Source: an uncultured Erysipelotrichaceae bacterium (GTDB lineage: Bacteria; Bacillota_I; Bacilli_A; RF39; UBA660). From it: DNA of 58,900 nt. The position numbers were made by a program, and so were the translations under genes. The stretch is from assembly GCA_902780585.1 (NCBI GenBank), contig CACZGA010000003.1, positions 1 to 58,900 of the forward strand, given 5' to 3'. The notes beneath the pieces were generated by a model. That model was given only the letters and a program-made list of their open reading frames with translations, was not told the DNA's origin and did not search any database. This document shows, in pieces, positions 7,797 through 49,752 of the stretch. Each line of letters opens with the position of its first letter. The stretch's first letter is position 1.

Positions 7797-10118
7797 TCAA
7801 CTCCTTACCATAACAGAAGATTTGTTTTTGTTCTTATCAATTTCTCGCATATCGTTGTATATACCTTCGGCGACTCTTTTGCCATCCATATTGACTTCTA
7901 TAGGTCTCTCTGCATAACTTAACATACTTGCGTTTAAGGATACTAACAAATCAATTATTTGTTTATTATCATTACCATTATCATACCCATTAGCGTTTGG
8001 ATTATATCGTTTCGGTGTAACCATTTCACCTTCATGTAAGTGATACAATCCCTCGCTTTCAATATAAGGTGTACCTGTTTCTAGCATTGGTATCTTTGGT
8101 ATCTTGACTGTACTCAAAGACCAATTCTTACCAGAAACCTTACCAAGCGCTACAATCAACCCTCTAAGTGGAAATAATATAATGTTTATAGCATCAATCA
8201 AAAGATTAACTATCACCGCAAAGACGGTGTATATAGCCTTTCCTAAAGTGGTAAAGAAAGCCTTTAAAGCGTTTCCAACGGTTTTCATGTTTTTGCCCAA
8301 TAATATTATTGCACCTATAACCAAGCCTATAGTCAATACAATCAGTGTTAATGGTGATGATAACAACGCACTTAATGCTAAACCAGCGTTCATAAGACCA
8401 ATTGCCAATGTTACAGCACCAATAGCTAACGCAATACCCTCTATAATACTAGCCGTACTTTCTCCGAATATACTCTCTAAAAGTGTATCGATACCTTTAA
8501 AAGCACTTCTCATGGCTTCTAACACTGCATCCGCTATTTCTGCCCATTGTATATTAACTAAGAATGTTTTAATACTTTCTCCTATACCTTCCCAATCAAC
8601 ACTTACCAAGAAAAGTTTTATTCCATTAAATATGCCAACAACACCATCGGATATTGTCGTAGCCAACATTTCCCAATCAATACTCGTAAACGCACCAGAA
8701 ACAGCTCTTCCTAATCCAGCACCAAATCTTATAAATGAAAATTTTTCAACGAAACCATACGCAAAGTTAATCGCAGTATTAATGCCATTGCCGAGCGTTG
8801 TCCCTAATTGTGTCCAATTTAATTCGAATAGCCCGTTTAAAAAGTCCGCAATATTATAACCAAGCGCTTGGAAGTTCTTTTGAATAGAGTCCCATTGTAT
8901 ATCACTCAACAAACCATTAATGGCGTCGGCGATATCTTCTCCGACTTCATGCCATTTACCTTCTTTTAAATGAGCCAATATATCGTCTAACAATTTAAAA
9001 GATTTTACACTATCATCTATCTTTATCTGACTGGCGGGAGACGAAGCACTTTCTGTTGGCAAGTTTGTAATTTCATCCATTCCCAATAATCCACGTTGTG
9101 CGTTTGCTGCTGCTTTTGAAGATTTTGCTTGTGTATCTAACGCTTTTGCGTTAGCTCTAGCAACCAAATCTATACCAGTCAAAGCGCTTACAAATTGTGC
9201 AACATAATTTGTAGCCATCGCAAACAATCTCGCAACAAATTCAATAGCTGGTGCTAATAAAGAACCTAACATATTCCAAGAATTGGTTAGAGACTCTTGT
9301 AATTCACTATCAAAAGATAAATATGAATTTACAGCCTTTGTTAACACAGACATTGCTGTTCTAACCCCAATTAGACCAAGCGCCAACTTTTTTATTTTAC
9401 GCAAGCTACTATCAATTCCATTGCTCAAACTTTTAGTGAAGTTTTCAACCCCTCTAGTTTTAAACATTCCTTTAAAATTATTAGCCCATTCTTTCGTACT
9501 TTTATCTGGTTTTTGAGAGCCTCCGCCACCAGAACCACCACTTGTACCTGTTTTGTTTTGAAGTCTTAGTATTTCTCTCAACCTTTGAATAAGTCCGTTT
9601 GCTTCGCTACTAGATTCTTTTAGACCCTTTTCTAAGTTATCAATAGCTGGTGAGCCTTCTTCACTTTTTTGTGACTCTATTGTGTTTTTTAAATATTCTT
9701 GTAGTTCGTCTATAAGTTCTTTTTCTCTGTCTAGTTTTTCTTGTGTAATAAAAATATCCGCAGTAGGGTCACCTGTCCCTAAACCTAAATCTTGTGTTGG
9801 ATTATAAAAAACTGACGACATGCCAGCTGGTCTTTGTGAAAAGGCTTTTGCTTGTCTTTCATATTCACTTGTTAAACTTTCTATTTCTTTTTTCAAATCT
9901 TCTGCTTTCATTTTAGAAGCAGAGAAATTAGAGTTGATATTATTGGTTGCGTTTGTGACGTTTTTCATACTATTAGCAACTTTATTTGTAGCATTATCGT
10001 ATTGTTGCCATGAATGTATCGCGTTTTTCAGATTGTTTGTCATTTTATCCGTAACACTTTTTAAGTATAGTGTTATGGTATCCAAATCCATATAATCACC
10101 TCTGTTTTTGATTATCAA
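7797..10118 (-). CDS. Tail tape measure protein
   Basis: About 770 aa, helical A/G/I-rich with W-spaced repeats; follows the tail chaperones. Confidence 0.85.
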   Translation of the reverse strand: MIIKNRGDYMDLDTITLYLKSVTDKMTNNLKNAIHSWQQYDNATNKVANSMKNVTNATNNINSNFSASKMKAEDLKKEIESLTSEYERQAKAFSQRPAGMSSVFYNPTQDLGLGTGDPTADIFITQEKLDREKELIDELQEYLKNTIESQKSEEGSPAIDNLEKGLKESSSEANGLIQRLREILRLQNKTGTSGGSGGGGSQKPDKSTKEWANNFKGMFKTRGVENFTKSLSNGIDSSLRKIKKLALGLIGVRTAMSVLTKAVNSYLSFDSELQESLTNSWNMLGSLLAPAIEFVARLFAMATNYVAQFVSALTGIDLVARANAKALDTQAKSSKAAANAQRGLLGMDEITNLPTESASSPASQIKIDDSVKSFKLLDDILAHLKEGKWHEVGEDIADAINGLLSDIQWDSIQKNFQALGYNIADFLNGLFELNWTQLGTTLGNGINTAINFAYGFVEKFSFIRFGAGLGRAVSGAFTSIDWEMLATTISDGVVGIFNGIKLFLVSVDWEGIGESIKTFLVNIQWAEIADAVLEAMRSAFKGIDTLLESIFGESTASIIEGIALAIGAVTLAIGLMNAGLALSALLSSPLTLIVLTIGLVIGAIILLGKNMKTVGNALKAFFTTLGKAIYTVFAVIVNLLIDAINIILFPLRGLIVALGKVSGKNWSLSTVKIPKIPMLETGTPYIESEGLYHLHEGEMVTPKRYNPNANGYDNGNDNKQIIDLLVSLNASMLSYAERPIEVNMDGKRVAEGIYNDMREIDKNKNKSSVMVRS

Positions 10119-10542
10119 AATGTTTCTTTGTGGCTTTAGCCCATTTTTCGAAGAATATACGAGCTTTCAACCTTTCATTTTGTATTTCAATATCTTTTTC
10201 TTTTTCTGTTTTCATATCTTTTATTTCTTCACTCATAGGTTTGCTACGATATTGTAGAGGTTTTGTTCCTTTTTTAGAAAAAGCATGTAATATAGGAGAT
10301 ACATCACAAAGTGCCTCGTATATATACATGCCTTGTTTCCACATAAACACATCGTCATATCGCATTTTTAACTTATATGCTTCACGATAGAATTTTACAA
10401 GATAAGCATCACCATTCCAATACTCATCAAAACTCATACCGTATGCCATATAATAAGGACATTCGTGTTCAAAAAGTTTAGTAAGGGAAGAAGACTCTAC
10501 TCTTGAGTTTCCACTTTTGGTGAAAGACTCACTACTTCCCAA
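10096..10542 (-). CDS. Tail assembly chaperone, -1 frameshift extension (GT-like)
   Basis: Overlaps the chaperone in the -1 frame; YMAYGMSFDEYW motif. Confidence 0.7.
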   Translation of the reverse strand: MGSSESFTKSGNSRVESSSLTKLFEHECPYYMAYGMSFDEYWNGDAYLVKFYREAYKLKMRYDDVFMWKQGMYIYEALCDVSPILHAFSKKGTKPLQYRSKPMSEEIKDMKTEKEKDIEIQNERLKARIFFEKWAKATKKHFDNQKQR

Positions 10543-10853
10543 CTGACGTTTCCCTCATCGTTTTTAGGTTCTTCTGATAAAGAACTATAACATTCTGTTA
10601 TCATATCAACTATTTTTTCAAGTAAAGCGTCTTTATTTTTACAGTTAGCGTAAATCTCTTCAATAAGAGATGCAGACACTTTCCTGTGATTCTTATAAAA
10701 AGCCCCTTTGAAAGCCAAATCAATCATTGTCATTGGCTGTTTTGAAAACTTCTCCAATTCAAAACCTTCACTTTCGATGATTTTAACAGTCATTCTGCTA
10801 TATTCCAAGGTATAGGTTATACCTTTATATGTTAAGTCAATCTTTGTATTCAA
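10497..10853 (-). CDS. Tail assembly chaperone (G-like)
   Basis: 118 aa between the major tail protein and the tape measure gene. Confidence 0.75.
   Translation of the reverse strand: MNTKIDLTYKGITYTLEYSRMTVKIIESEGFELEKFSKQPMTMIDLAFKGAFYKNHRKVSASLIEEIYANCKNKDALLEKIVDMITECYSSLSEEPKNDEGNVSWEVVSLSPKVETQE
10548..10554 (-). other. -1 programmed frameshift heptamer G GGA AAC
   Basis: X XXY YYZ in the chaperone frame; a -1 shift reads into ...RQLGSSESFTK of the downstream ORF. Confidence 0.75.
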
Positions 10854-10878
10854 TTTCTACACATCCTTTTCTCATATT

Positions 10879-27359: not shown

Positions 27360-27575
27360 ATGTACAAGTTCAAACAAGAAAAGTATGATGAACTACTAAA
27401 TGGTCGTAAGATTTTATGGTTATCAGAAGAAATTGGTTATTCGATACAAATGCTTTCTTACATCCTTAATAATAAGAAAGATTGTCGTAAAATGGTTGCC
27501 TATGCAATTGTTAAGGCGTTGCACCCTGAAAGTGAAATCGAAGATTATTTTGAATATATAGAGAAAGGAGAGTAA
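27360..27575 (+). CDS. XRE/Cro-like HTH protein
   Basis: WLSEEIGYSIQMLSYILN. Confidence 0.7.
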   Translation: MYKFKQEKYDELLNGRKILWLSEEIGYSIQMLSYILNNKKDCRKMVAYAIVKALHPESEIEDYFEYIEKGE

Positions 27576-27577
27576 AA

Positions 27578-29083
27578 ATGGCGGATAAAGGCAAACAGAA
27601 AAATGAGATAATTGGAAAATGGTATAAATTATCATTAGATGATTATTCATTGGAAGCAGAAGTTAAAGACGGAGAAAGAATAGATTTCATTAAATTAAAA
27701 GATGTTTGGGAATTAAAAATGGAAGATATGTCGGTTCAACATAAATATGATTATGATATAGTACATCCCATTCTTGAAGAAGCTGTTATGAAAAATTATC
27801 AGTTCAAATTTGTTCGTGATTTAAATCTTAATAATGCAAGAATATATTTATACGATAATGGTGTATATAAATGGATAAGTGAGAATGAATTTAAGGGAAA
27901 AATCGCAAGTCTTATTCCAAGTTTTTTTCGCAGGAGTAAGGATGTTGACGAGGTTTATAAGTTATTGTTATTAGAAAATGATTTATATATTGATAATTCA
28001 GAGTTGAATAGTAAAGAGAATTTGATTTGCTTTAAAAATGGTAATTTAAACCTTGATACAATGGAGATTGAAGATCATAACCCTGTTGATACCTTTTCGA
28101 TACAAATTCCTTTCGAATACAAGCCTTTGGATGATTGTGTTTATGGTGAAAATTTTGAACGTTATATGAATGATTTATGTGATGGTGATGATATTATGAA
28201 AGACTTGTTATTAGAATGTATGGGTCTTGCGATTTCAAACATACCAGGTTATCGTGTGAAGAAATGTCTTTTGATGGTTGGCGAAAAGGATAGTGGTAAA
28301 ACGCAGATTAAGAAGTTGCTTACGAAATTGATTGGTACGGAATATTGTTCGAGTAGTGAGTTGGCAAGTATGAGTAGTAGTCATAATAAGTTTGGTACGA
28401 GTGATTTGTATAATAAGAGACTAGCTGGTTCGAATGATATGAGTTATGCAAAGATTGATGATATGTCAATGTTTAAGCAGTTGACAGGTGGAGATACAAT
28501 TAGTATTGAATTTAAGGGTCGTACGCCGTTTTCGTATACATTTACAGGTTTTCTTTGGTTTCTTGCGAATGATTACCCAAGATTTAGTGGTAAGAAAGAG
28601 AGTGCGATATATGAACGTTTTTTGATAGCACCTTGTACACATATTGTAAAAGAAAGTGAGCAAGATCCTGAACTTTTGAATAAGATGTTGGAAGAAGGTG
28701 AATATATTGTTTCATTGTGTATTGAACATTTATTGAATTTAAAGAAAAGACATTATAAGTTTATAACAAGTGAGAGAATGGATAAGGCGTTGGAACGATA
28801 TAAAGTCATGAATAATAGTTTATTGCAGTTTGTTGAGGAATGTTGTGAGATTGATGATATGTTGGCAAAAGAAGATAGGGTTATTACACCTAAGTTCAGG
28901 AGATATTATCAGCGTTGGTGTAATGAAACGGGTGTTAAGAAGATGTCTTTGACAAATGATAATATGGAGTTTTATTTGAATATGAAATATGGTACCGAGA
29001 AAAAGCGAAGTAATGGTTATTATTATTGGACCAATATAAAAATGAGGCAAGAATTTTTAGATGATTATGGTACATTTAGTTAA
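27578..29083 (+). CDS. P4/D5-family primase-associated SF3 helicase
   Basis: LICFKNG, Walker A GEKDSGKT, FKQLTGGD. Confidence 0.85.
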   Translation: MADKGKQKNEIIGKWYKLSLDDYSLEAEVKDGERIDFIKLKDVWELKMEDMSVQHKYDYDIVHPILEEAVMKNYQFKFVRDLNLNNARIYLYDNGVYKWISENEFKGKIASLIPSFFRRSKDVDEVYKLLLLENDLYIDNSELNSKENLICFKNGNLNLDTMEIEDHNPVDTFSIQIPFEYKPLDDCVYGENFERYMNDLCDGDDIMKDLLLECMGLAISNIPGYRVKKCLLMVGEKDSGKTQIKKLLTKLIGTEYCSSSELASMSSSHNKFGTSDLYNKRLAGSNDMSYAKIDDMSMFKQLTGGDTISIEFKGRTPFSYTFTGFLWFLANDYPRFSGKKESAIYERFLIAPCTHIVKESEQDPELLNKMLEEGEYIVSLCIEHLLNLKKRHYKFITSERMDKALERYKVMNNSLLQFVEECCEIDDMLAKEDRVITPKFRRYYQRWCNETGVKKMSLTNDNMEFYLNMKYGTEKKRSNGYYYWTNIKMRQEFLDDYGTFS

Positions 29084-41466: not shown

Positions 41467-41478
41467 AGGATTGATGTT

Positions 41479-42288
41479 ATGAATAAATGGAAATACTTAG
41501 AAGAGCATTATATCAATAAAGGTTTTAAAATATTTCCTGTTGTTGAAAATGGAAAGACGCCGTTGATAGAAAAGTGGCAAGAAGATTGCTCTTGTGACTT
41601 CTTTCAAGTCTTATATTGGTATGAAACATTTCCAAATTGTAATTGGGGTCTTCCTTGTACACCTAACAATTTATTTGTTTTGGATTTAGACAAACACGAC
41701 CCCAATAAAGATGGCGTTGAAAATTTTGCTAAAATATTGGATAAAATTTTTACAGACGACGACTATGACGACTTTGCCACGTGTCAACAAGTAACACCAA
41801 GTGGCGGAGAACATTATATATTTTATAGTGATGATGAATTGAAAAATGTGGCTAATGGTAGCAACGTGTTTAAGGATTATCCTGGAATAGACATCAGAAC
41901 GGACGGTTATATATTGGTACAACCAAGTGAAATAAATGGTAAAAAATATAATTTCGATACAATTGGAGATTGTGAGCCACAAAAAATGAAGAGTAAATTA
42001 AAAAAATTCATACTTAAAAACGTCAATCTAAAAAGCGATATCAATAAAGAACCATACAAAAAACCAACTTCTGTTGAAGTCGGCGATAGAGACAATCAAT
42101 TGTTTTCTTATATAAACAATGTTTATTATAAAACAAGATTGGATTATGACGAAGTGCTTTGTCTTGCTAAAAATTTTAACGAAACTGTTCTTGAAAAACC
42201 ATTTCCTGATCGTGTTGTTGAATACAAAACAAAAAAAGTTTTTGACAAAGATAGAGGTAAAGTTATTTTTATAAATCTTGGGGAATGA
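41479..42288 (+). CDS. Bifunctional primase-polymerase (Prim-Pol) domain protein
   Basis: IFPV...GKTP, NWGL, VLDLD, TPSGGEHYIF, IDIR.DGYILVQPS. Confidence 0.85.
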   Translation: MNKWKYLEEHYINKGFKIFPVVENGKTPLIEKWQEDCSCDFFQVLYWYETFPNCNWGLPCTPNNLFVLDLDKHDPNKDGVENFAKILDKIFTDDDYDDFATCQQVTPSGGEHYIFYSDDELKNVANGSNVFKDYPGIDIRTDGYILVQPSEINGKKYNFDTIGDCEPQKMKSKLKKFILKNVNLKSDINKEPYKKPTSVEVGDRDNQLFSYINNVYYKTRLDYDEVLCLAKNFNETVLEKPFPDRVVEYKTKKVFDKDRGKVIFINLGE

Positions 42289-42356
42289 AAAATCCCCACC
42301 GAAGTGGGGATAAATGAGATAATTTTGTGCAGATTGAAGAAATCAACCAAACACAT
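42288..42356 (-). ncRNA. Small RNA candidate (about 65 nt)
   Basis: TTGACA-17-TATAAT promoter at 42361-42389 and an AUCCCCAC-UUCG-GUGGGGAU-U4 terminator. Confidence 0.55.
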
Positions 42357-45298: not shown

Positions 45299-45553
45299 AT
45301 GGGAAGAAGAAAAAACACTGAAATAATAGAATATATGGATGAAGCTTGTGATAAAGTATGGTATATGAGAAGTACACCATGTGATAATCCAGAAATTGAA
45401 AAAGGAAGATTAAAAGCTATAAAACGAGTAGAAAAAGAGTTTCCGGAAGTTAAAGAAGGATTTGATACTTGGGATTGTGGTTTTTGGAATGGTGTATTAG
45501 GAACACTTCGTTGGGTTCTTGGTGATGAAGAAAAAGATAATTTAGACACATAG
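45299..45553 (+). CDS. Hypothetical protein
   Basis: 84 aa; GFWNGVLGTLRWVLG. Confidence 0.6.
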   Translation: MGRRKNTEIIEYMDEACDKVWYMRSTPCDNPEIEKGRLKAIKRVEKEFPEVKEGFDTWDCGFWNGVLGTLRWVLGDEEKDNLDT

Positions 45554-45561
45554 GTGATTAT

Positions 45562-46434
45562 ATGAGTTTTGACGAATTGTTAGACAGAGTTTGGTATTAT
45601 GATATAGAAATTTTTGCACACGATTCACTAATAGTTTTCATATCACACAAAACACAAGAAAGAGTATATTTTCATAATTCTATACCAAACGATATACAAA
45701 ACTTTTTAGATATTAATGATCCAATACTTATAGGTTACAATTGTAATAATTATGACAAATGGATACTTAAATGTTGGTTAGCTGGATATACACCAGAAGA
45801 ATTAAAAGAAGTAAATGATTATATAATAAATGGTGGAAAAGGTTGGGAAATAGATTGTGGTCGAATCAATCTACCAATACATTGGGACTTGTTTAACGAA
45901 ATTAATCCTAGAAAATCTTTAAAAGAATGTGAGGGTCACATGAAATTAGATATAACAGAAACCACAGTTCCTTTTGATTTACCAACAAAGTGGACTAAAC
46001 AACAATTTGAAGAAGTTTTATATTATTGTACATGTGATGTTAAAGCTCTTATTCCACTTTTTGAAAAAATGAGAGATGGATATTTAGCTAAATATACTAT
46101 ATGTGAAATGGGTAATATTCCGTTTGATTATGGTTTAAGTTTAACAAATGCTAATTTAACTGCAACATTTCTACACGCTGAAAGAAAAGAACATGATGAT
46201 AAAAATGATTATCAATATCCAAGTAACTTTGAATTAGAAAAAATTTTACCAGAAGTTAAAGAATATTTTGATTCATTTATACGTGGAGAAATAGATATTG
46301 ATGATAAAAATTTACCCATTAATTTAGATGGTATGAGAGGTAATGTTGGGGCTGGTGGGATCCATTTAGCTTTAGATAATTATATTTTTGAAAGCGAAGA
46401 TTTTAATGTAGGTGATTATTATGAGCAAAATTAA
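45562..46434 (+). CDS. Family-B DNA polymerase, N-terminal 3'-5' exonuclease part
   Basis: Exo I YDIE, Exo II GYNCNNYD, Exo III YCTCDV; ends shortly after GGIH. Confidence 0.85.
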   Translation: MSFDELLDRVWYYDIEIFAHDSLIVFISHKTQERVYFHNSIPNDIQNFLDINDPILIGYNCNNYDKWILKCWLAGYTPEELKEVNDYIINGGKGWEIDCGRINLPIHWDLFNEINPRKSLKECEGHMKLDITETTVPFDLPTKWTKQQFEEVLYYCTCDVKALIPLFEKMRDGYLAKYTICEMGNIPFDYGLSLTNANLTATFLHAERKEHDDKNDYQYPSNFELEKILPEVKEYFDSFIRGEIDIDDKNLPINLDGMRGNVGAGGIHLALDNYIFESEDFNVGDYYEQN

Positions 46435-47077
46435 AGATTTAACAGGTAAAAAATTTGGAATGGTTACTGTTATTAAGTTAGATAGAATAGAAAATAGAAG
46501 AACATATTGGATATGTAAATGTGATTGTGGCAACATTTTTACTCGTAGGTCTGATATAATCCAAAATAAAGAGGTTAAAAGTTGTGGTTGTTATCAAAAA
46601 GAAAATAATAAAATTATAGGAACTTTACATGGAGATGGTTCTAAAAAATCTAAATATCATCGGTTATATCAATGTTATCAAAGTATGAAACAAAGATGTT
46701 ATAACCCTAATTGTATTCAATTTAAAGATTGGGGTGGACGTGGTATAAAAGTGTGTGATGAGTGGAAAAATGATTATTTAAAATTTAAAAAATGGGCTTT
46801 ATCACATGGTTATCATGATGAATTGACACTTGACAGAATAAAGGTTAATAGAAATTACGAACCTAATAATTGTAGATGGATAACTAAAATTGAACAAAAT
46901 AGAAATACTAGAAAATGTAAACATTTTCTTATAAATAATAAAGATTATACAATACCTTTGTTATCTAAAAAATTAGGTATAAGTGATGATACAATACATT
47001 ATTGGTTAAAAAAAGGATGTGATATAAATTATATATTAAAACGTTTTAAAAGTAATAAGGAGGTGGTTAGGGAGTGA
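46412..47077 (+). CDS. HNH-type homing endonuclease (AP2/HNH-like)
   Basis: DLTGKKFG, WICKCDCG, SCGC, GGRGIKVCDEW, TLDRI...YEPNNCRW; probable start at 46421. Confidence 0.85.
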   Translation: MIIMSKIKDLTGKKFGMVTVIKLDRIENRRTYWICKCDCGNIFTRRSDIIQNKEVKSCGCYQKENNKIIGTLHGDGSKKSKYHRLYQCYQSMKQRCYNPNCIQFKDWGGRGIKVCDEWKNDYLKFKKWALSHGYHDELTLDRIKVNRNYEPNNCRWITKIEQNRNTRKCKHFLINNKDYTIPLLSKKLGISDDTIHYWLKKGCDINYILKRFKSNKEVVRE

Positions 47078-49073
47078 AAAGGCTATTATTAAATTATGAT
47101 GTAGCCTCACTTCGGTGAGATCTATATCCAAGTTTAATTTGTGAATATGGCTATTCTAGTAGAAATCAACCTGATGCTAATTTATATAAAGAGTTGAGAG
47201 AAACTAGAATAAAAGCCAAACATAGTGGTGATAAAAAAACAGCTAATGCTTTAAAACTCCCTCTCTGAATACTTATTATGGAGCTTTAGGTGCTAGATGG
47301 AACAATCTTTTTGATTTAAAACAATGTAGATCAATTTGTATTTCAGGTCAGTGTGCTTTGCTTATTTTAATATATGATTTACGAAAGATACCAACTTTAA
47401 AATGTATTAGCTCTAACACCGATGCTTGTCAATTCGAAGTCGATGATACTTATATGAATGACGTTCAAGAAGTAATTAATAATTGGCAAAAAAGATATAG
47501 ACTTGAATTAGAACGTGATGATGTTTTAAAAATAGTTATGAAAGACATCAATAATTATTGTGAAATACTTCAAACAAATAAAGGAAAACAAGTAAATTTT
47601 AAAGGTGGTTGTTTTGCGGGTTGTCCTGATATAAAAATACATGAAAATGGTAAATTAGAAACAATATATAAAGATAGTTATAAAGCAAATTCTATGGTAA
47701 TTGTAGCAGAAGCTATTTTAAAATATTTATTGTTTAACATACCTATTGAGAAAACTATCAATAATTGTAATGATATCTTCAAATTTCAACAGATATCCCA
47801 CCTAGGCTCTACCTACGAAAAGTGTGTTCAAGAGTCAGAAAATGGTGATATAGAACTTCAAAGGAACAATCGTATATACGCTGGTCTTAAACCAAGTGGT
47901 GTAATAATAAAAGTAAAACCGAATGGTAGACGTGATTCACTTGCGAATTGTCCTCCAAACCCGATAGTCGACAATGGTAATAAATGCACTATTGAAGATA
48001 TAAACAAGGAATGGTATATTGAGTTTGCACAGGAAAAAGCAAACGATTTCTTAGGTATACCTAGGCTTGATAGTTTGAAAAAAGAAGAACTTTTAGAAAG
48101 AGCTAAAGGTTTGGGCTTAGAAATAGATAAAAAAACAAAAAAAGATGATATAATAAAGATGATAAAAAATAAAGAAAGAAATGAGGTAAAAAATATGGCT
48201 ACAAAGCAAGATATTGAAAAAGAGCTGGAAGAAACAAAAGAAAAATTAAATAAAGCCGTTACACAAAACGAGCAATTAATGAATAAGATTAAAGAAAGTG
48301 AGAATGTAAAAGAAATGAAGTTTGCTGATGAAAGATTAAATGATAATATTATGTTACAAAGTTCTTTATACAAGAAAATAAACGAACTAAGAAAATATAT
48401 TAGGAGTGTCGATTTTGTATATGATGAAGAATTGCCTAGTAATTTGGGTGGTGGAGAATATTATAGTATAGGACAATTATACGATGCTTTACAAAAAGGT
48501 TGTTTAGAAGTTGGATTAGATTTTAGTCACGATGTTGTCGAAGTTATTAGCTTTGATAAAGAACTTGTAAAACCAAGTGGTAAATTACCAATCCATGTTG
48601 CAACCGTTAAAACAAAATCGACATTAACTGATATAAACACCGGGATTAGTAAAGATTATATTACAATAGCACAAGGTAGTGATACAATTGATAAAGCTAT
48701 TAGCGGTGCAAGTACGCTAGCGTTTAGACAATGGTTTACAAAGAATTTCTCTCCTAAAAATGCTAATGATGATGACAATGTTGATGAAACACCAAAGAGT
48801 GAAGAACCTAAAGTTCCAGTATACATTCCTGAAAGCAAAAAAGAAGAAATAAAAGAAGAAGTTGTAAAACAAGTACAACAAGAAGATAGTGATGATGAAG
48901 ATATTAAAGTAATCTGTCAGAACATAATGGCAATCAGAGAAAAGACAGGAAATGAAGAATACGGAAAAACTACAATGCAAGCTTTAATGAGTGGTATTTT
49001 AAGCAGTGCTGATATTTTAGAAATTGACTTAAAGATTAAACAGAAAATGGAGAGTGTTGGATTGAATGTATGA
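47074..49073 (+). CDS. Family-B DNA polymerase catalytic part (needs two recoding events), fused in frame to an ERF-like domain
   Basis: GTG start with AAGGAGGTG RBS; motif A DVASL[R*DL]YPS; motif B KLPL[+2]NTYYG; motif C SNTDA. Confidence 0.75.
48195..49073 (+). CDS. ERF-family single-strand annealing protein (internal in-frame start)
   Basis: GAGGT RBS before ATG 48195; GSDTIDKAISGASTLAFR motif; lies near the YqaJ exonuclease gene. Confidence 0.65.
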   Translation: MATKQDIEKELEETKEKLNKAVTQNEQLMNKIKESENVKEMKFADERLNDNIMLQSSLYKKINELRKYIRSVDFVYDEELPSNLGGGEYYSIGQLYDALQKGCLEVGLDFSHDVVEVISFDKELVKPSGKLPIHVATVKTKSTLTDINTGISKDYITIAQGSDTIDKAISGASTLAFRQWFTKNFSPKNANDDDNVDETPKSEEPKVPVYIPESKKEEIKEEVVKQVQQEDSDDEDIKVICQNIMAIREKTGNEEYGKTTMQALMSGILSSADILEIDLKIKQKMESVGLNV

Positions 49074-49752
49074 AGATGTTGAAATTAACTCCAAAAGATG
49101 GTTTGATTTAAAAGACTTGAAAAACGAGGAATGGAAAGACATCAAGGATTTTGAAAATTTGTACCAGGTTAGTAATTATGCGAGAATAAAGAGCTTATAT
49201 AAACCATCTATTAAAAACCAATATATGTATGATAGAATCATGAAAATAAAACCTAATAAATTAGGATATTCGACTGTTCATTTTATTCATAACGGTAAGG
49301 AATATAGAAAATTATTACATATATTGGTTGCTGAAACATTTATACCTAATCCAAATAATCTTCCACAAGTATTGCACAAAAAAGCAACTTTAGATGGTGG
49401 GACTGATAGAGTTGACAATTTATATTGGGGTACACAGAAAGACAACATGCGTGATAGAAAAAATGAAGGTAAATTTGTTGTAAGCGAAGAAACTAGAAGT
49501 AAAATAAGTGTTTCGCAAAAAATAAAAATAAATCAATATGATTTAAACGGGAACTATATCAAAACATGGGATAGTGCATCTGATGTAAAAAAGGAATTAA
49601 ATATTGATGACAGCACGATACGAAAATGTTGTAGAGGTGTTAAAAAATCTTGTGGTGGTTTCCAATGGAGAAAATTTAACAATAACACAGAAAACATTAA
49701 AAAATATAGTATATTGAAAAGAAAGGAAATTAAAAATGGAATGGAAATATAG
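49066..49752 (+). CDS. NUMOD4-HNH-NUMOD1 homing endonuclease
   Basis: EEWKDI...YQVSN, HILVAETFIPNP, NLYWGTQKDN, CGGFQWR. Confidence 0.85.
   Translation: MYEDVEINSKRWFDLKDLKNEEWKDIKDFENLYQVSNYARIKSLYKPSIKNQYMYDRIMKIKPNKLGYSTVHFIHNGKEYRKLLHILVAETFIPNPNNLPQVLHKKATLDGGTDRVDNLYWGTQKDNMRDRKNEGKFVVSEETRSKISVSQKIKINQYDLNGNYIKTWDSASDVKKELNIDDSTIRKCCRGVKKSCGGFQWRKFNNNTENIKKYSILKRKEIKNGMEI

Follow-up and report, generated by a model that had tools for sequence, protein, structure and literature searches.

Short inserts in the catalytic motifs of a split phage family B DNA polymerase suggest small translational hops in series

Introduction

Natural translational bypassing is rare, and very few systems are known (PMC5009743). 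The natural cases set out in that 2016 review are T4 gene 60 and the mitochondria of Magnusiomyces capitatus, together with unproven candidates, and by its account no natural in-frame stop-hop was known at the time. A 2022 preprint reports further gene 60-type cassettes, in topoisomerase genes only (bioRxiv 10.1101/2022.08.31.505936). The literature we searched, the supplements of that preprint aside, yielded no published precedent for bypass in a polymerase. Here we analyse a stretch of 58,900 nucleotides (nt), called the window below, from contig CACZGA010000003.1 of GenBank assembly GCA_902780585.1. The window is a phage contig of about 59 kb, and its subject for us is a split gene for a family B DNA polymerase (PolB) whose catalytic motifs A and B carry inserts of 12 and 2 nt. 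Positions refer to the window, and genes and sites lie on the plus strand unless stated otherwise.

The arrangement recalls T4 gene 60 and its associated endonuclease MobA. As described for that system, an HNH endonuclease gene lies between the halves of a split essential replication gene (PMC5009743; 10.1101/2022.08.31.505936), and a non-coding insert follows soon after the start of the downstream open reading frame (ORF) (10.1101/2022.08.31.505936). The published accounts of gene 60 also describe a take-off codon within a UUCG hairpin, a stop or hungry codon directly after it and a Shine-Dalgarno-like stretch 5' of the landing codon, all of which have counterparts in the window. There, too, the cassette may move by gene conversion, as reported for gene 60 and MobA.

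An earlier note, made from the letters of this DNA alone, had proposed that ribosomes cross the motif A insert by a 12-nt hop from CTT to CTA, like the bypassing elements (byps) of yeast mitochondria. It had not recorded the split gene with its HNH ORF, a second lesion at 47263-47268 or the inserts in related phages. Comparison across 89 related loci leaves the proposed hop as the best-supported explanation of the 12-nt insert. One hop is not enough, since CTC TGA at 47263-47268 needs a second event. We consider it fairly likely, from the comparison of sequences, that peptidyl-tRNA makes short programmed ribosomal hops at both sites (CUU to CUA, +12; CUC to CUG, +2).

Results

The first interruption falls inside motif A, 13 codons into the polymerase-domain ORF. 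A Shine-Dalgarno sequence (AAGGAGG, 47057-47063) and a GTG start (47074-47076), both read directly from the sequence, open a first coding piece (47074-47112). Alignments show that this piece holds the motif A aspartate and ends in N Y D V A S L, its last codon being the take-off codon CTT (47110-47112). In the GTG frame, 47098-47130 reads GAT GTA GCC TCA CTT CGG TGA GAT CTA TAT CCA. Frameshift-aware protein-to-DNA alignment against the closest uninterrupted relative placed 12 extra nt between Leu and Tyr, at 47113-47124, with no residue lost. The insert that the earlier note had marked in motif A is thus present as described, and it is absent from uninterrupted homologues; three annotated phage PolB proteins (Weissella PWc, Enterococcus KEN20 and Bacillus BMBtp15) have D-x-x-S-[LMY]-Y-P without it. 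CGG TGA GAT CTA begins with a rare Arg codon and a stop, has a variable third codon and closes with CTA (47122-47124), the landing codon, so that the codons after the take-off CTT are CGG and then TGA. CGG, rightly suspected of being rare, is the rarest Arg codon, with 7 of 17,147 codons in the 76 window ORFs. Take-off and landing codons are synonymous, not identical, and CTA is the first CT-N triplet downstream of CTT.

The insert sits in a predicted RNA hairpin with a UUCG loop (47098-47128). Its lower stem pairs 47098-47104 with 47122-47128 and its upper stem 47106-47110 with 47115-47119 (GAUGUAG / CUCAC-UUCG-GUGAG / CUAUAUC), placing the take-off codon within the stem-loop. The fold, just as first drawn, has a predicted energy of -12.9 kcal/mol and a z-score of -3.5, and one of 200 shuffles folded equally well. 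Three carriers of the 12-nt insert are known, the window and two related loci that we label L005 and L044, and within the hairpin stretch they differ only at the unpaired positions 47120-47121. The 39 nt of the first coding piece (47074-47112) are identical in all three. When viral contigs were scanned for the pattern of the 12-nt allele, the L005 contig alone was returned. The hairpin was not found as a dispersed repeat, with a single near match at 42295-42308. That match, CCCAC-TTCG-GTGGG, stands directly 3' of the ORF at 41467-42288 and is likely a terminator.

The second interruption falls inside motif B. Past the in-frame TGA, the GTG-47074 frame continues through a second coding piece (47125-47265; Y P S L I C E Y G Y S S R N to A L K L P L) and stops at TGA 47266-47268. 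Motif B resumes in the adjacent frame, with N T Y Y G A L G, at the head of a third coding piece (47268-49073). Besides motif B (N T Y Y G), this piece encodes motif C (S N T D A) and the thumb, followed by a C-terminal extension of about 300 amino acids, and it matches phrog_1252 positions 408-652 (E 8.8e-53). The homologue L002 has K L P L N T x Y G at this place. The lesion amounts to exactly two extra bases, the window reading CCT CTC TGA AT versus CCT CTG AAT in L007. A second recoding site is proposed at CTC TGA (47263-47268), where a move of two bases from CTC (47263-47265) to CTG (47265-47267) would resume decoding at AAT 47268. The same 2-nt insertion was called in seven distinct loci from three clades.

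Ordinary read-through or a single-base frameshift could in principle cross both sites if extra residues were tolerated, four in motif A and one additional Leu in motif B after a -1 shift. In its favour, inserts of 12, 9 and 3 nt are in frame, and slipping back one base at CTC would produce K L P L L N. T TTA AAA at 47251-47257 also has the form and frame of a slippery heptamer, but a shift there would produce K-T-P-S-L-N, which exceeds the K-L-P-L-N of homologues by one residue and differs from it in sequence. TGA, moreover, is an ordinary stop that ends 16 of the 76 window ORFs, and RF2 is encoded in the metagenomic bin to which the window belongs. The third codon of the motif A insert is GAT, GGA or GAA in the assemblies of the window, L005 and L044; it would read D, G or E, while neighbouring codons are nearly invariant.

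Related loci carry further inserts at the same motifs. Scans recovered 91 loci (38 viral, 51 metagenomic and 2 genomic), of which 89 were aligned together with the window; L039 and L092, whose matches lack the motif region, were left out. Removal of 25 exact duplicates and of L091, a truncated copy of L006, left 64 distinct loci. Inserts of 1-16 nt occur in 24 of these 64, five of which carry two, giving 29 events. The comparison of related phages that the earlier note had proposed thus returned both the same insert, in L005 and L044, and many variants. All 29 events fall at five positions within catalytic motifs A, B and C, and none in the other ~320 codons of about 340 aligned residues. Several alignment flags were judged to be artefacts and were not counted: a -2/+2 pair within four codons in L014; flags in L033, L041, L042 and L093 caused by distant references; and, at the variable end of the domain, a 14-nt plus 4-nt pair in L037, L075, L077 and L090 (the 14-nt flag only in L079). 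The ORFs are open in all loci with such flags.

The inserts differ in position and length. In motif A, inserts of 4, 5, 9, 10, 12 or 16 nt lie between S-L and Y, and a 3-nt insert, always TAA, lies between Y and P. Motif B has a first site after K-L-P-L, with 2 nt, and a second after N-A-Y-T, with 5 or 7 nt, and motif C carries a 1-nt insert after A-N-T. The 5-nt insert at the second motif B site is found in eight distinct loci, the 2-nt insert at the first in seven, the 12-nt and 3-nt inserts of motif A in three each and its 4-nt insert in two. One distinct locus each carries the 9-, 10-, 16- and 5-nt types of motif A, the 7-nt type of motif B and the 1-nt type of motif C. Insert states are patchy on a quick tree, the only tree used for this purpose. 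CGGTG is common to several of the motif A inserts, which are probably homologous, so that independent support comes from about four sites, not twelve. One carrier of the 5-nt motif B insert, L094, is in a bin titled Candidatus Gastranaerophilales, a hint on the host range of the phage lineage.

The inserts share a signature that suggests how they might be crossed. For 10 of 12 insert types, decoding would have to resume right after a triplet whose first two letters are those of the take-off codon, and no triplet nearer to the take-off site on its downstream side matches in this way. In motif A, between S-L and Y, the pairs are CUU to CUA for the window type (+12), CUG to CUU in L009 (+9), CUC to CUA in L048 (+16), CUC to CUU in L022 (+10), and CUC to CUU or CUA in L007 and L010, respectively (+4). 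The alleles with TAA between Y and P pair UAU with UAA (+3). At the first motif B site CUC pairs with CUG (+2), and at the second ACU or ACG pairs with ACU (+5) and ACU with ACG (+7). In motif C, L029 requires a plain +1 at ACC UGA C. A stop or CGG stands directly after the take-off codon in all types except the 4-nt inserts and L095 (in its UCA to UCG reading), and the stop itself can differ, TGA and TAA being exchanged between L012 and L015.

This range of lengths weighs against read-through with tolerated extra residues. Read-through is impossible for the 4-, 5-, 10- and 16-nt inserts at the same motif A position, and in L048 the +1 frame meets a TGA inside the insert. We regard it as very improbable for the window. 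The variation of the third insert codon among D, G and E, and the frame changes brought by the 4-, 5-, 10- and 16-nt alleles, suggest that the insert itself is left untranslated.

Selection on both sides of the breaks indicates a working gene. We compared the ratio of nonsynonymous to synonymous proportions of differences (pN/pS) in the expected frame and in the wrong frames. Between the TGA and the frameshift (47125-47266), three pairs drawn from the window, L005 and L044 differ by 4, 11 and 12 synonymous and by 0, 1 and 1 nonsynonymous changes, giving pN/pS of 0-0.023; in the wrong frames it is 0.65-5.8, or undefined where no synonymous change was scored. Beyond the second lesion (47268-48098) the ratio is 0.14-0.16 in the expected frame, and the wrong frames give 1.06-4.25. 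Loci with the 5-nt motif B insert have diverged from one another to pS 0.35-0.75, with pN/pS staying at 0.03-0.25 on the upstream side and at 0.11-0.16 on the downstream side, where only pairs without insertions or deletions are given because a one-codon indel downstream inflates the ungapped ratio. The flanks of the inserts are, by these comparisons, under strong purifying selection. Because pN/pS is low after the TGA and again after the frameshift, we read the gene as expressed across both breaks.

These values bear directly on the idea that the polymerase gene is dead or dispensable, its lesions inactivating and possibly spread by a selfish endonuclease cassette while another polymerase or a co-infecting helper replicates the phage. 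Two lesions in catalytic motifs of one gene would fit such a history, a recent conversion tract could carry deleterious hitch-hikers, the window holds primase and prim-pol-like ORFs, and contig C1 of the bin encodes an intact polymerase that falls in the same PHROG at 27% identity. But the pseudogene-like decay that would betray a dead gene was not seen. Selection is not relaxed past either lesion, the lesion places are not arbitrary since all 29 events spare the other ~320 codons, diverged carriers keep both flanks constrained, and no other copy of this polymerase was found on the window's contig. We hold a dead gene to be distinctly unlikely.

The inserts recur in independent data. From run X2, which may be this DNA's own source, a 1062-nt contig covers 46900-47500 and agrees with the window at every base. 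Run X6, from another study, gave two 184-nt contigs over 47091-47274, one identical and the other with 14 substitutions and no gaps; T>A at 47121 was seen in this run. Run X19, labelled metatranscriptomic, gave only pieces of 35-38 nt with 4-5 differences at 47008-47056 and is uninformative on expression. The same 12-nt insert stands in the L005 and L044 assemblies, whose downstream protein identity is 87-88%. The window and all its relatives are metagenomic assemblies, and several insert types are singletons, as an assembly or sequencing artefact would allow. Yet independent assemblies and runs share these inserts while differing by substitutions around them, 12 nt that form a perfect hairpin are atypical of sequencing error, and flanking gene segments on the same contigs show no frame change (helicase 45/45, exonuclease ORF 82/82, RecE-like 77/77, polymerase C-terminal extension 82/82). 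An artefact is therefore scarcely credible. Pseudogene, artefact and read-through are each contradicted by specific results.

The byp-like 12-nt hop is best supported because the flanks are constrained, the insert codons are unconstrained, the 4-, 5-, 10- and 16-nt alleles are beyond read-through, and take-off and landing codons match. At the first site, peptidyl-tRNA-Leu on CUU (47110), with the rare CGG and then UGA ahead, would unpair. The CUCAC-UUCG-GUGAG hairpin and a Shine-Dalgarno-like stretch, GGUGAG, may aid sliding of the mRNA until the tRNA re-pairs with CUA (47122), and decoding would resume at UAU to give D-V-A-S-L-Y-P-S. At CUC UGA (47263) the same tRNA species would re-pair with CUG two bases on, and decoding would resume at AAU to give K-L-P-L-N-T-Y-Y-G. 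Two short hops would in this way yield one polypeptide. The bin encodes a single CUN-reading tRNA-Leu, with anticodon UAG, and no tRNA genes were found within the window.

The inserts might instead be removed or corrected at the RNA level, by editing, by cleavage and religation or as an unknown kind of mini-intron. The stable hairpin around the 12-nt insert could then be a processing signal. Against this, a search of 45400-49200 gave no Rfam match at E up to 1, the group I intron ribozyme model included. Inserts of 1-7 nt without a significant fold would need the same machinery, and the match between take-off and landing triplets would have no role. We know of no bacterial system that excises 1-16 nt from mRNA. 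On this evidence we think RNA-level removal unlikely.

Homing endonucleases occupy the locus and may have moved the inserts. An HNH homing-endonuclease ORF (46412-47077; 221 amino acids; phrog_374, E 2.7e-66) lies between the two polymerase ORFs, and a second HNH endonuclease ORF (49066-49752; phrog_59, E 4.4e-33) lies directly 3' of the polymerase gene and overlaps its stop. In 100-nt windows, a tract at about 46000-47700, centred on the first HNH gene and holding both inserts, is 93-99% identical to L005, against 70-80% in its flanks. Synonymous divergence (pS) from L005 is 0.10 for the endonuclease gene, compared with 0.41 for the exonuclease ORF and 0.52 on the downstream side. HNH homologues occupy the same place in L005 (95%), L009 and L044 (63-64%) and L012 (39%). 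L007 and L008 are 97-100% identical except for patches, among them a divergent patch of about 360 nt from the split site to motif B, and carry different inserts (4 nt in motif A versus 2 nt at the first motif B site). Several endonuclease families, including the window's HNH type and others that we take, from recognised motifs, to be NUMOD4/HNH_3-like, are found at the split site, as are a PAPS-reductase-like ORF and a C5-methyltransferase-like ORF. Sequence identity is patterned as expected from repeated conversion by endonuclease-driven recombination.

The distribution of inserts follows the split. They occur in 24 of 43 split genes and in none of 21 fused genes (Fisher 4e-6, a test that ignores phylogeny). 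By analogy with described systems, the inserts are probably relics of conflict with homing endonucleases: they would persist by altering the conserved DNA that the endonucleases recognise and would move between phages with an endonuclease by gene conversion. An immunity function of this kind has been proposed for the T4 gene 60 gap and MobA (PMC5009743). The earlier suggestion that the insert controls production of active polymerase found no support; the endonucleases in and around the gene and the co-conversion tract point to an insert that is tolerated, or selected in this conflict.

Several points count against hopping at these sites, or limit how far it can be generalised. The case for bypassing comes from sequence comparison, and protection of an insert-bearing gene from cleavage is suggested by the parallel with gene 60 and MobA. 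In L012 and L015 the landing triplet would be ATA, whose second letter is unlike that of ACN, and L095 needs either an unmatched landing or a Ser hop from UCA to UCG with a Leu-to-Val change. If CTC is their take-off codon, the 4-nt inserts have neither a stop nor a rare codon in the A site. The hairpin, which the earlier note had treated as part of the element, is indeed present here but specific to this allele type: it is significant in the 12-nt type only, and other insert types have no significant fold. Five singleton types (9, 16 and 5 nt in motif A, 7 nt at the second motif B site and 1 nt in motif C) could include errors, and a second carrier of the 1-nt motif C insert was not found among 31 loci, leaving that type a singleton. 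With only 13 codons before take-off, a nascent-peptide signal like that of gene 60 cannot act in the same way. RF2-dependent termination at UGA would compete with the hop, and the inefficiencies of two events in series multiply. The host link, on which the tRNA and release factor assignments depend, comes via metagenomic binning only (completeness 95%, contamination 6.5%).

The split polymerase is a stable two-ORF enzyme in this lineage (window 45562-47112, loci L006-L032). Its exonuclease-domain ORF (45562-46434; 290 amino acids) matches phrog_1252 positions 53-348 of 663 (E 8.9e-49), aligns with the N-terminal part of PolB homologues and has a C-terminal tail conserved among relatives. In relatives the polymerase ORF is preceded by a ribosome-binding site of its own and starts about seven codons 5' of the motif A aspartate; the start is ATG, GTG or TTG and lies downstream of GGTGA-type sites. 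The split arrangement with conserved tails is kept in relatives with or without a gene inserted between the ORFs, and PolB is fused in the related clades L016-L020 and L033-L042. The C-terminal extension (48100-49073, about 300 residues past the polymerase domain) had no PHROG or Pfam match and stays in the same frame in all 82 loci with hits.

The family is a true, divergent PolB. It has PolB motifs A (D..SLYP), B (K...N..YG) and C (NTD) together with an exonuclease domain, and across 16 sequences D292, S295-P298, K352-N356-G360 and N405-D407 show little or no variation. An AlphaFold model of the fused homologue L016 had a predicted local distance difference test (pLDDT) score of 90.1, and its top Foldseek matches were Pol alpha, archaeal PolB and E. 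coli Pol II (E ~1e-14). Pfam returned no polymerase family for the pieces or for intact homologues, and the sequence of L016 matched nothing in PDB at E up to 0.01. Phage records gave no megablast match to 36000-58900, and blastn of 45500-47800 returned distant HNH genes only.

Other features of the window and its bin were recorded alongside. The ORFs at 41467-42288 and 27554-29083, 12 kb apart, match phrog_1156 primase positions 8-170 (N-terminal) and 434-832 (C-terminal), and the window's primase may be split as well. On the minus strand at 10096-10856, the ORF list shows two overlapping ORFs just upstream of a 789-amino-acid ORF, a layout that resembles the tail-chaperone frameshift pair before a tape-measure gene. 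The bin encodes both release factors, and its prfB carries the classic programmed +1 site, AGGAGG TCA CTT TGA C (G000:C11:14100-14125). ARAGORN reported five tRNAs with anticodon CUA (amber-suppressor-like, labelled Pyl) on contigs C4, C20, C53, C69 and C144 of the bin, G000; the window's contig has none. Such tRNAs may point to TAG recoding or to further contigs of phage origin. The intact polymerase on contig C1, 643 amino acids at G000:C1:30933-32840, probably belongs to another phage or prophage.

Discussion

Taken beyond the window, the comparison would describe a rumen and gut phage lineage that keeps its replicative polymerase behind 1-16-nt 'mini-byps' in motifs A, B and C, exchanged with homing endonucleases and crossed by hops of +2 to +16 to the first triplet of the same codon box. 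We give this wider picture, drawn from aligned sequences, an even chance of being right. If true, natural stop-hops would for the first time be known as a set from bacteria or phages, and one essential gene would hold several of them in series. Nature would in effect have run an experiment that defines take-off and landing rules: with roughly twelve allelic insert types in a single enzyme that is well understood, the rules of short-range hopping would become directly testable. A further gain would be a link from such inserts to the conflict of homing endonucleases with their conserved target DNA. There is a warning for annotation as well, as gene callers and curators will label such polymerases pseudogenes or fragments.

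The likeness to gene 60 has clear limits. The window lacks two of the features that define gene 60, its 50-nt gap and its distant nascent-peptide signal. Its insert is 12 nt, and those of its relatives 2-16 nt, against about 50 nt as described for gene 60 (20 in one clade). Its 13 codons before take-off leave no room for a signal of the KKYK type, reported to lie 25-30 residues before the P site. Its take-off and landing codons, CUU and CUA, are synonymous, whereas those of gene 60 are described as identical. The interrupted gene encodes PolB here and a topoisomerase in T4, and the window's endonuclease belongs to phrog_374 and is compared with MobA here on gene arrangement. Unlike gene 60, the window has a second site in the same ORF, and there are many related alleles with other lengths and sites.

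The mitochondrial byps of Magnusiomyces are longer, at 27-55 nt versus 1-16 nt here. As described in PMC5009743, they too are many short inserts corrected in translation, with a stop or unused codon in the A site and a take-off and landing match that is sometimes two-out-of-three. Byps disrupt 12 of 15 mitochondrial protein-coding genes, whereas this lineage, of bacterial phages, has inserts only in three motifs of one gene; four flanking gene segments show no frame change.

The +1 frameshift of prfB resembles the first motif B site in having a Leu CUN codon in the P site and UGA in the A site. The window's site, CTC TGA A, differs in needing +2 and in lacking an upstream Shine-Dalgarno stretch, which in prfB lies 3 nt away; the motif C allele of L029, ACC TGA C, would need +1, as prfB does. 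A candidate in the terminase of Streptomyces phage Hau3 likewise has a short proposed coding gap and a rare take-off codon (PMC5009743; PMC10732093). According to those accounts it lies in a different gene and host, was proposed as regulation through UUA and awaits proof.

Synthetic stop-hops and hungry-codon hops in E. coli resemble the hops proposed here. In the constructs described in PMC5009743, matched codons flank a stop or slow codon, as they do here, and 9 nt specify one residue. Those hops are described as engineered and of low efficiency. In the phage lineage, the L009 allele, CTG CGG TGA CTT, and the alleles with TAA between Y and P look like natural counterparts of the stop-hop.

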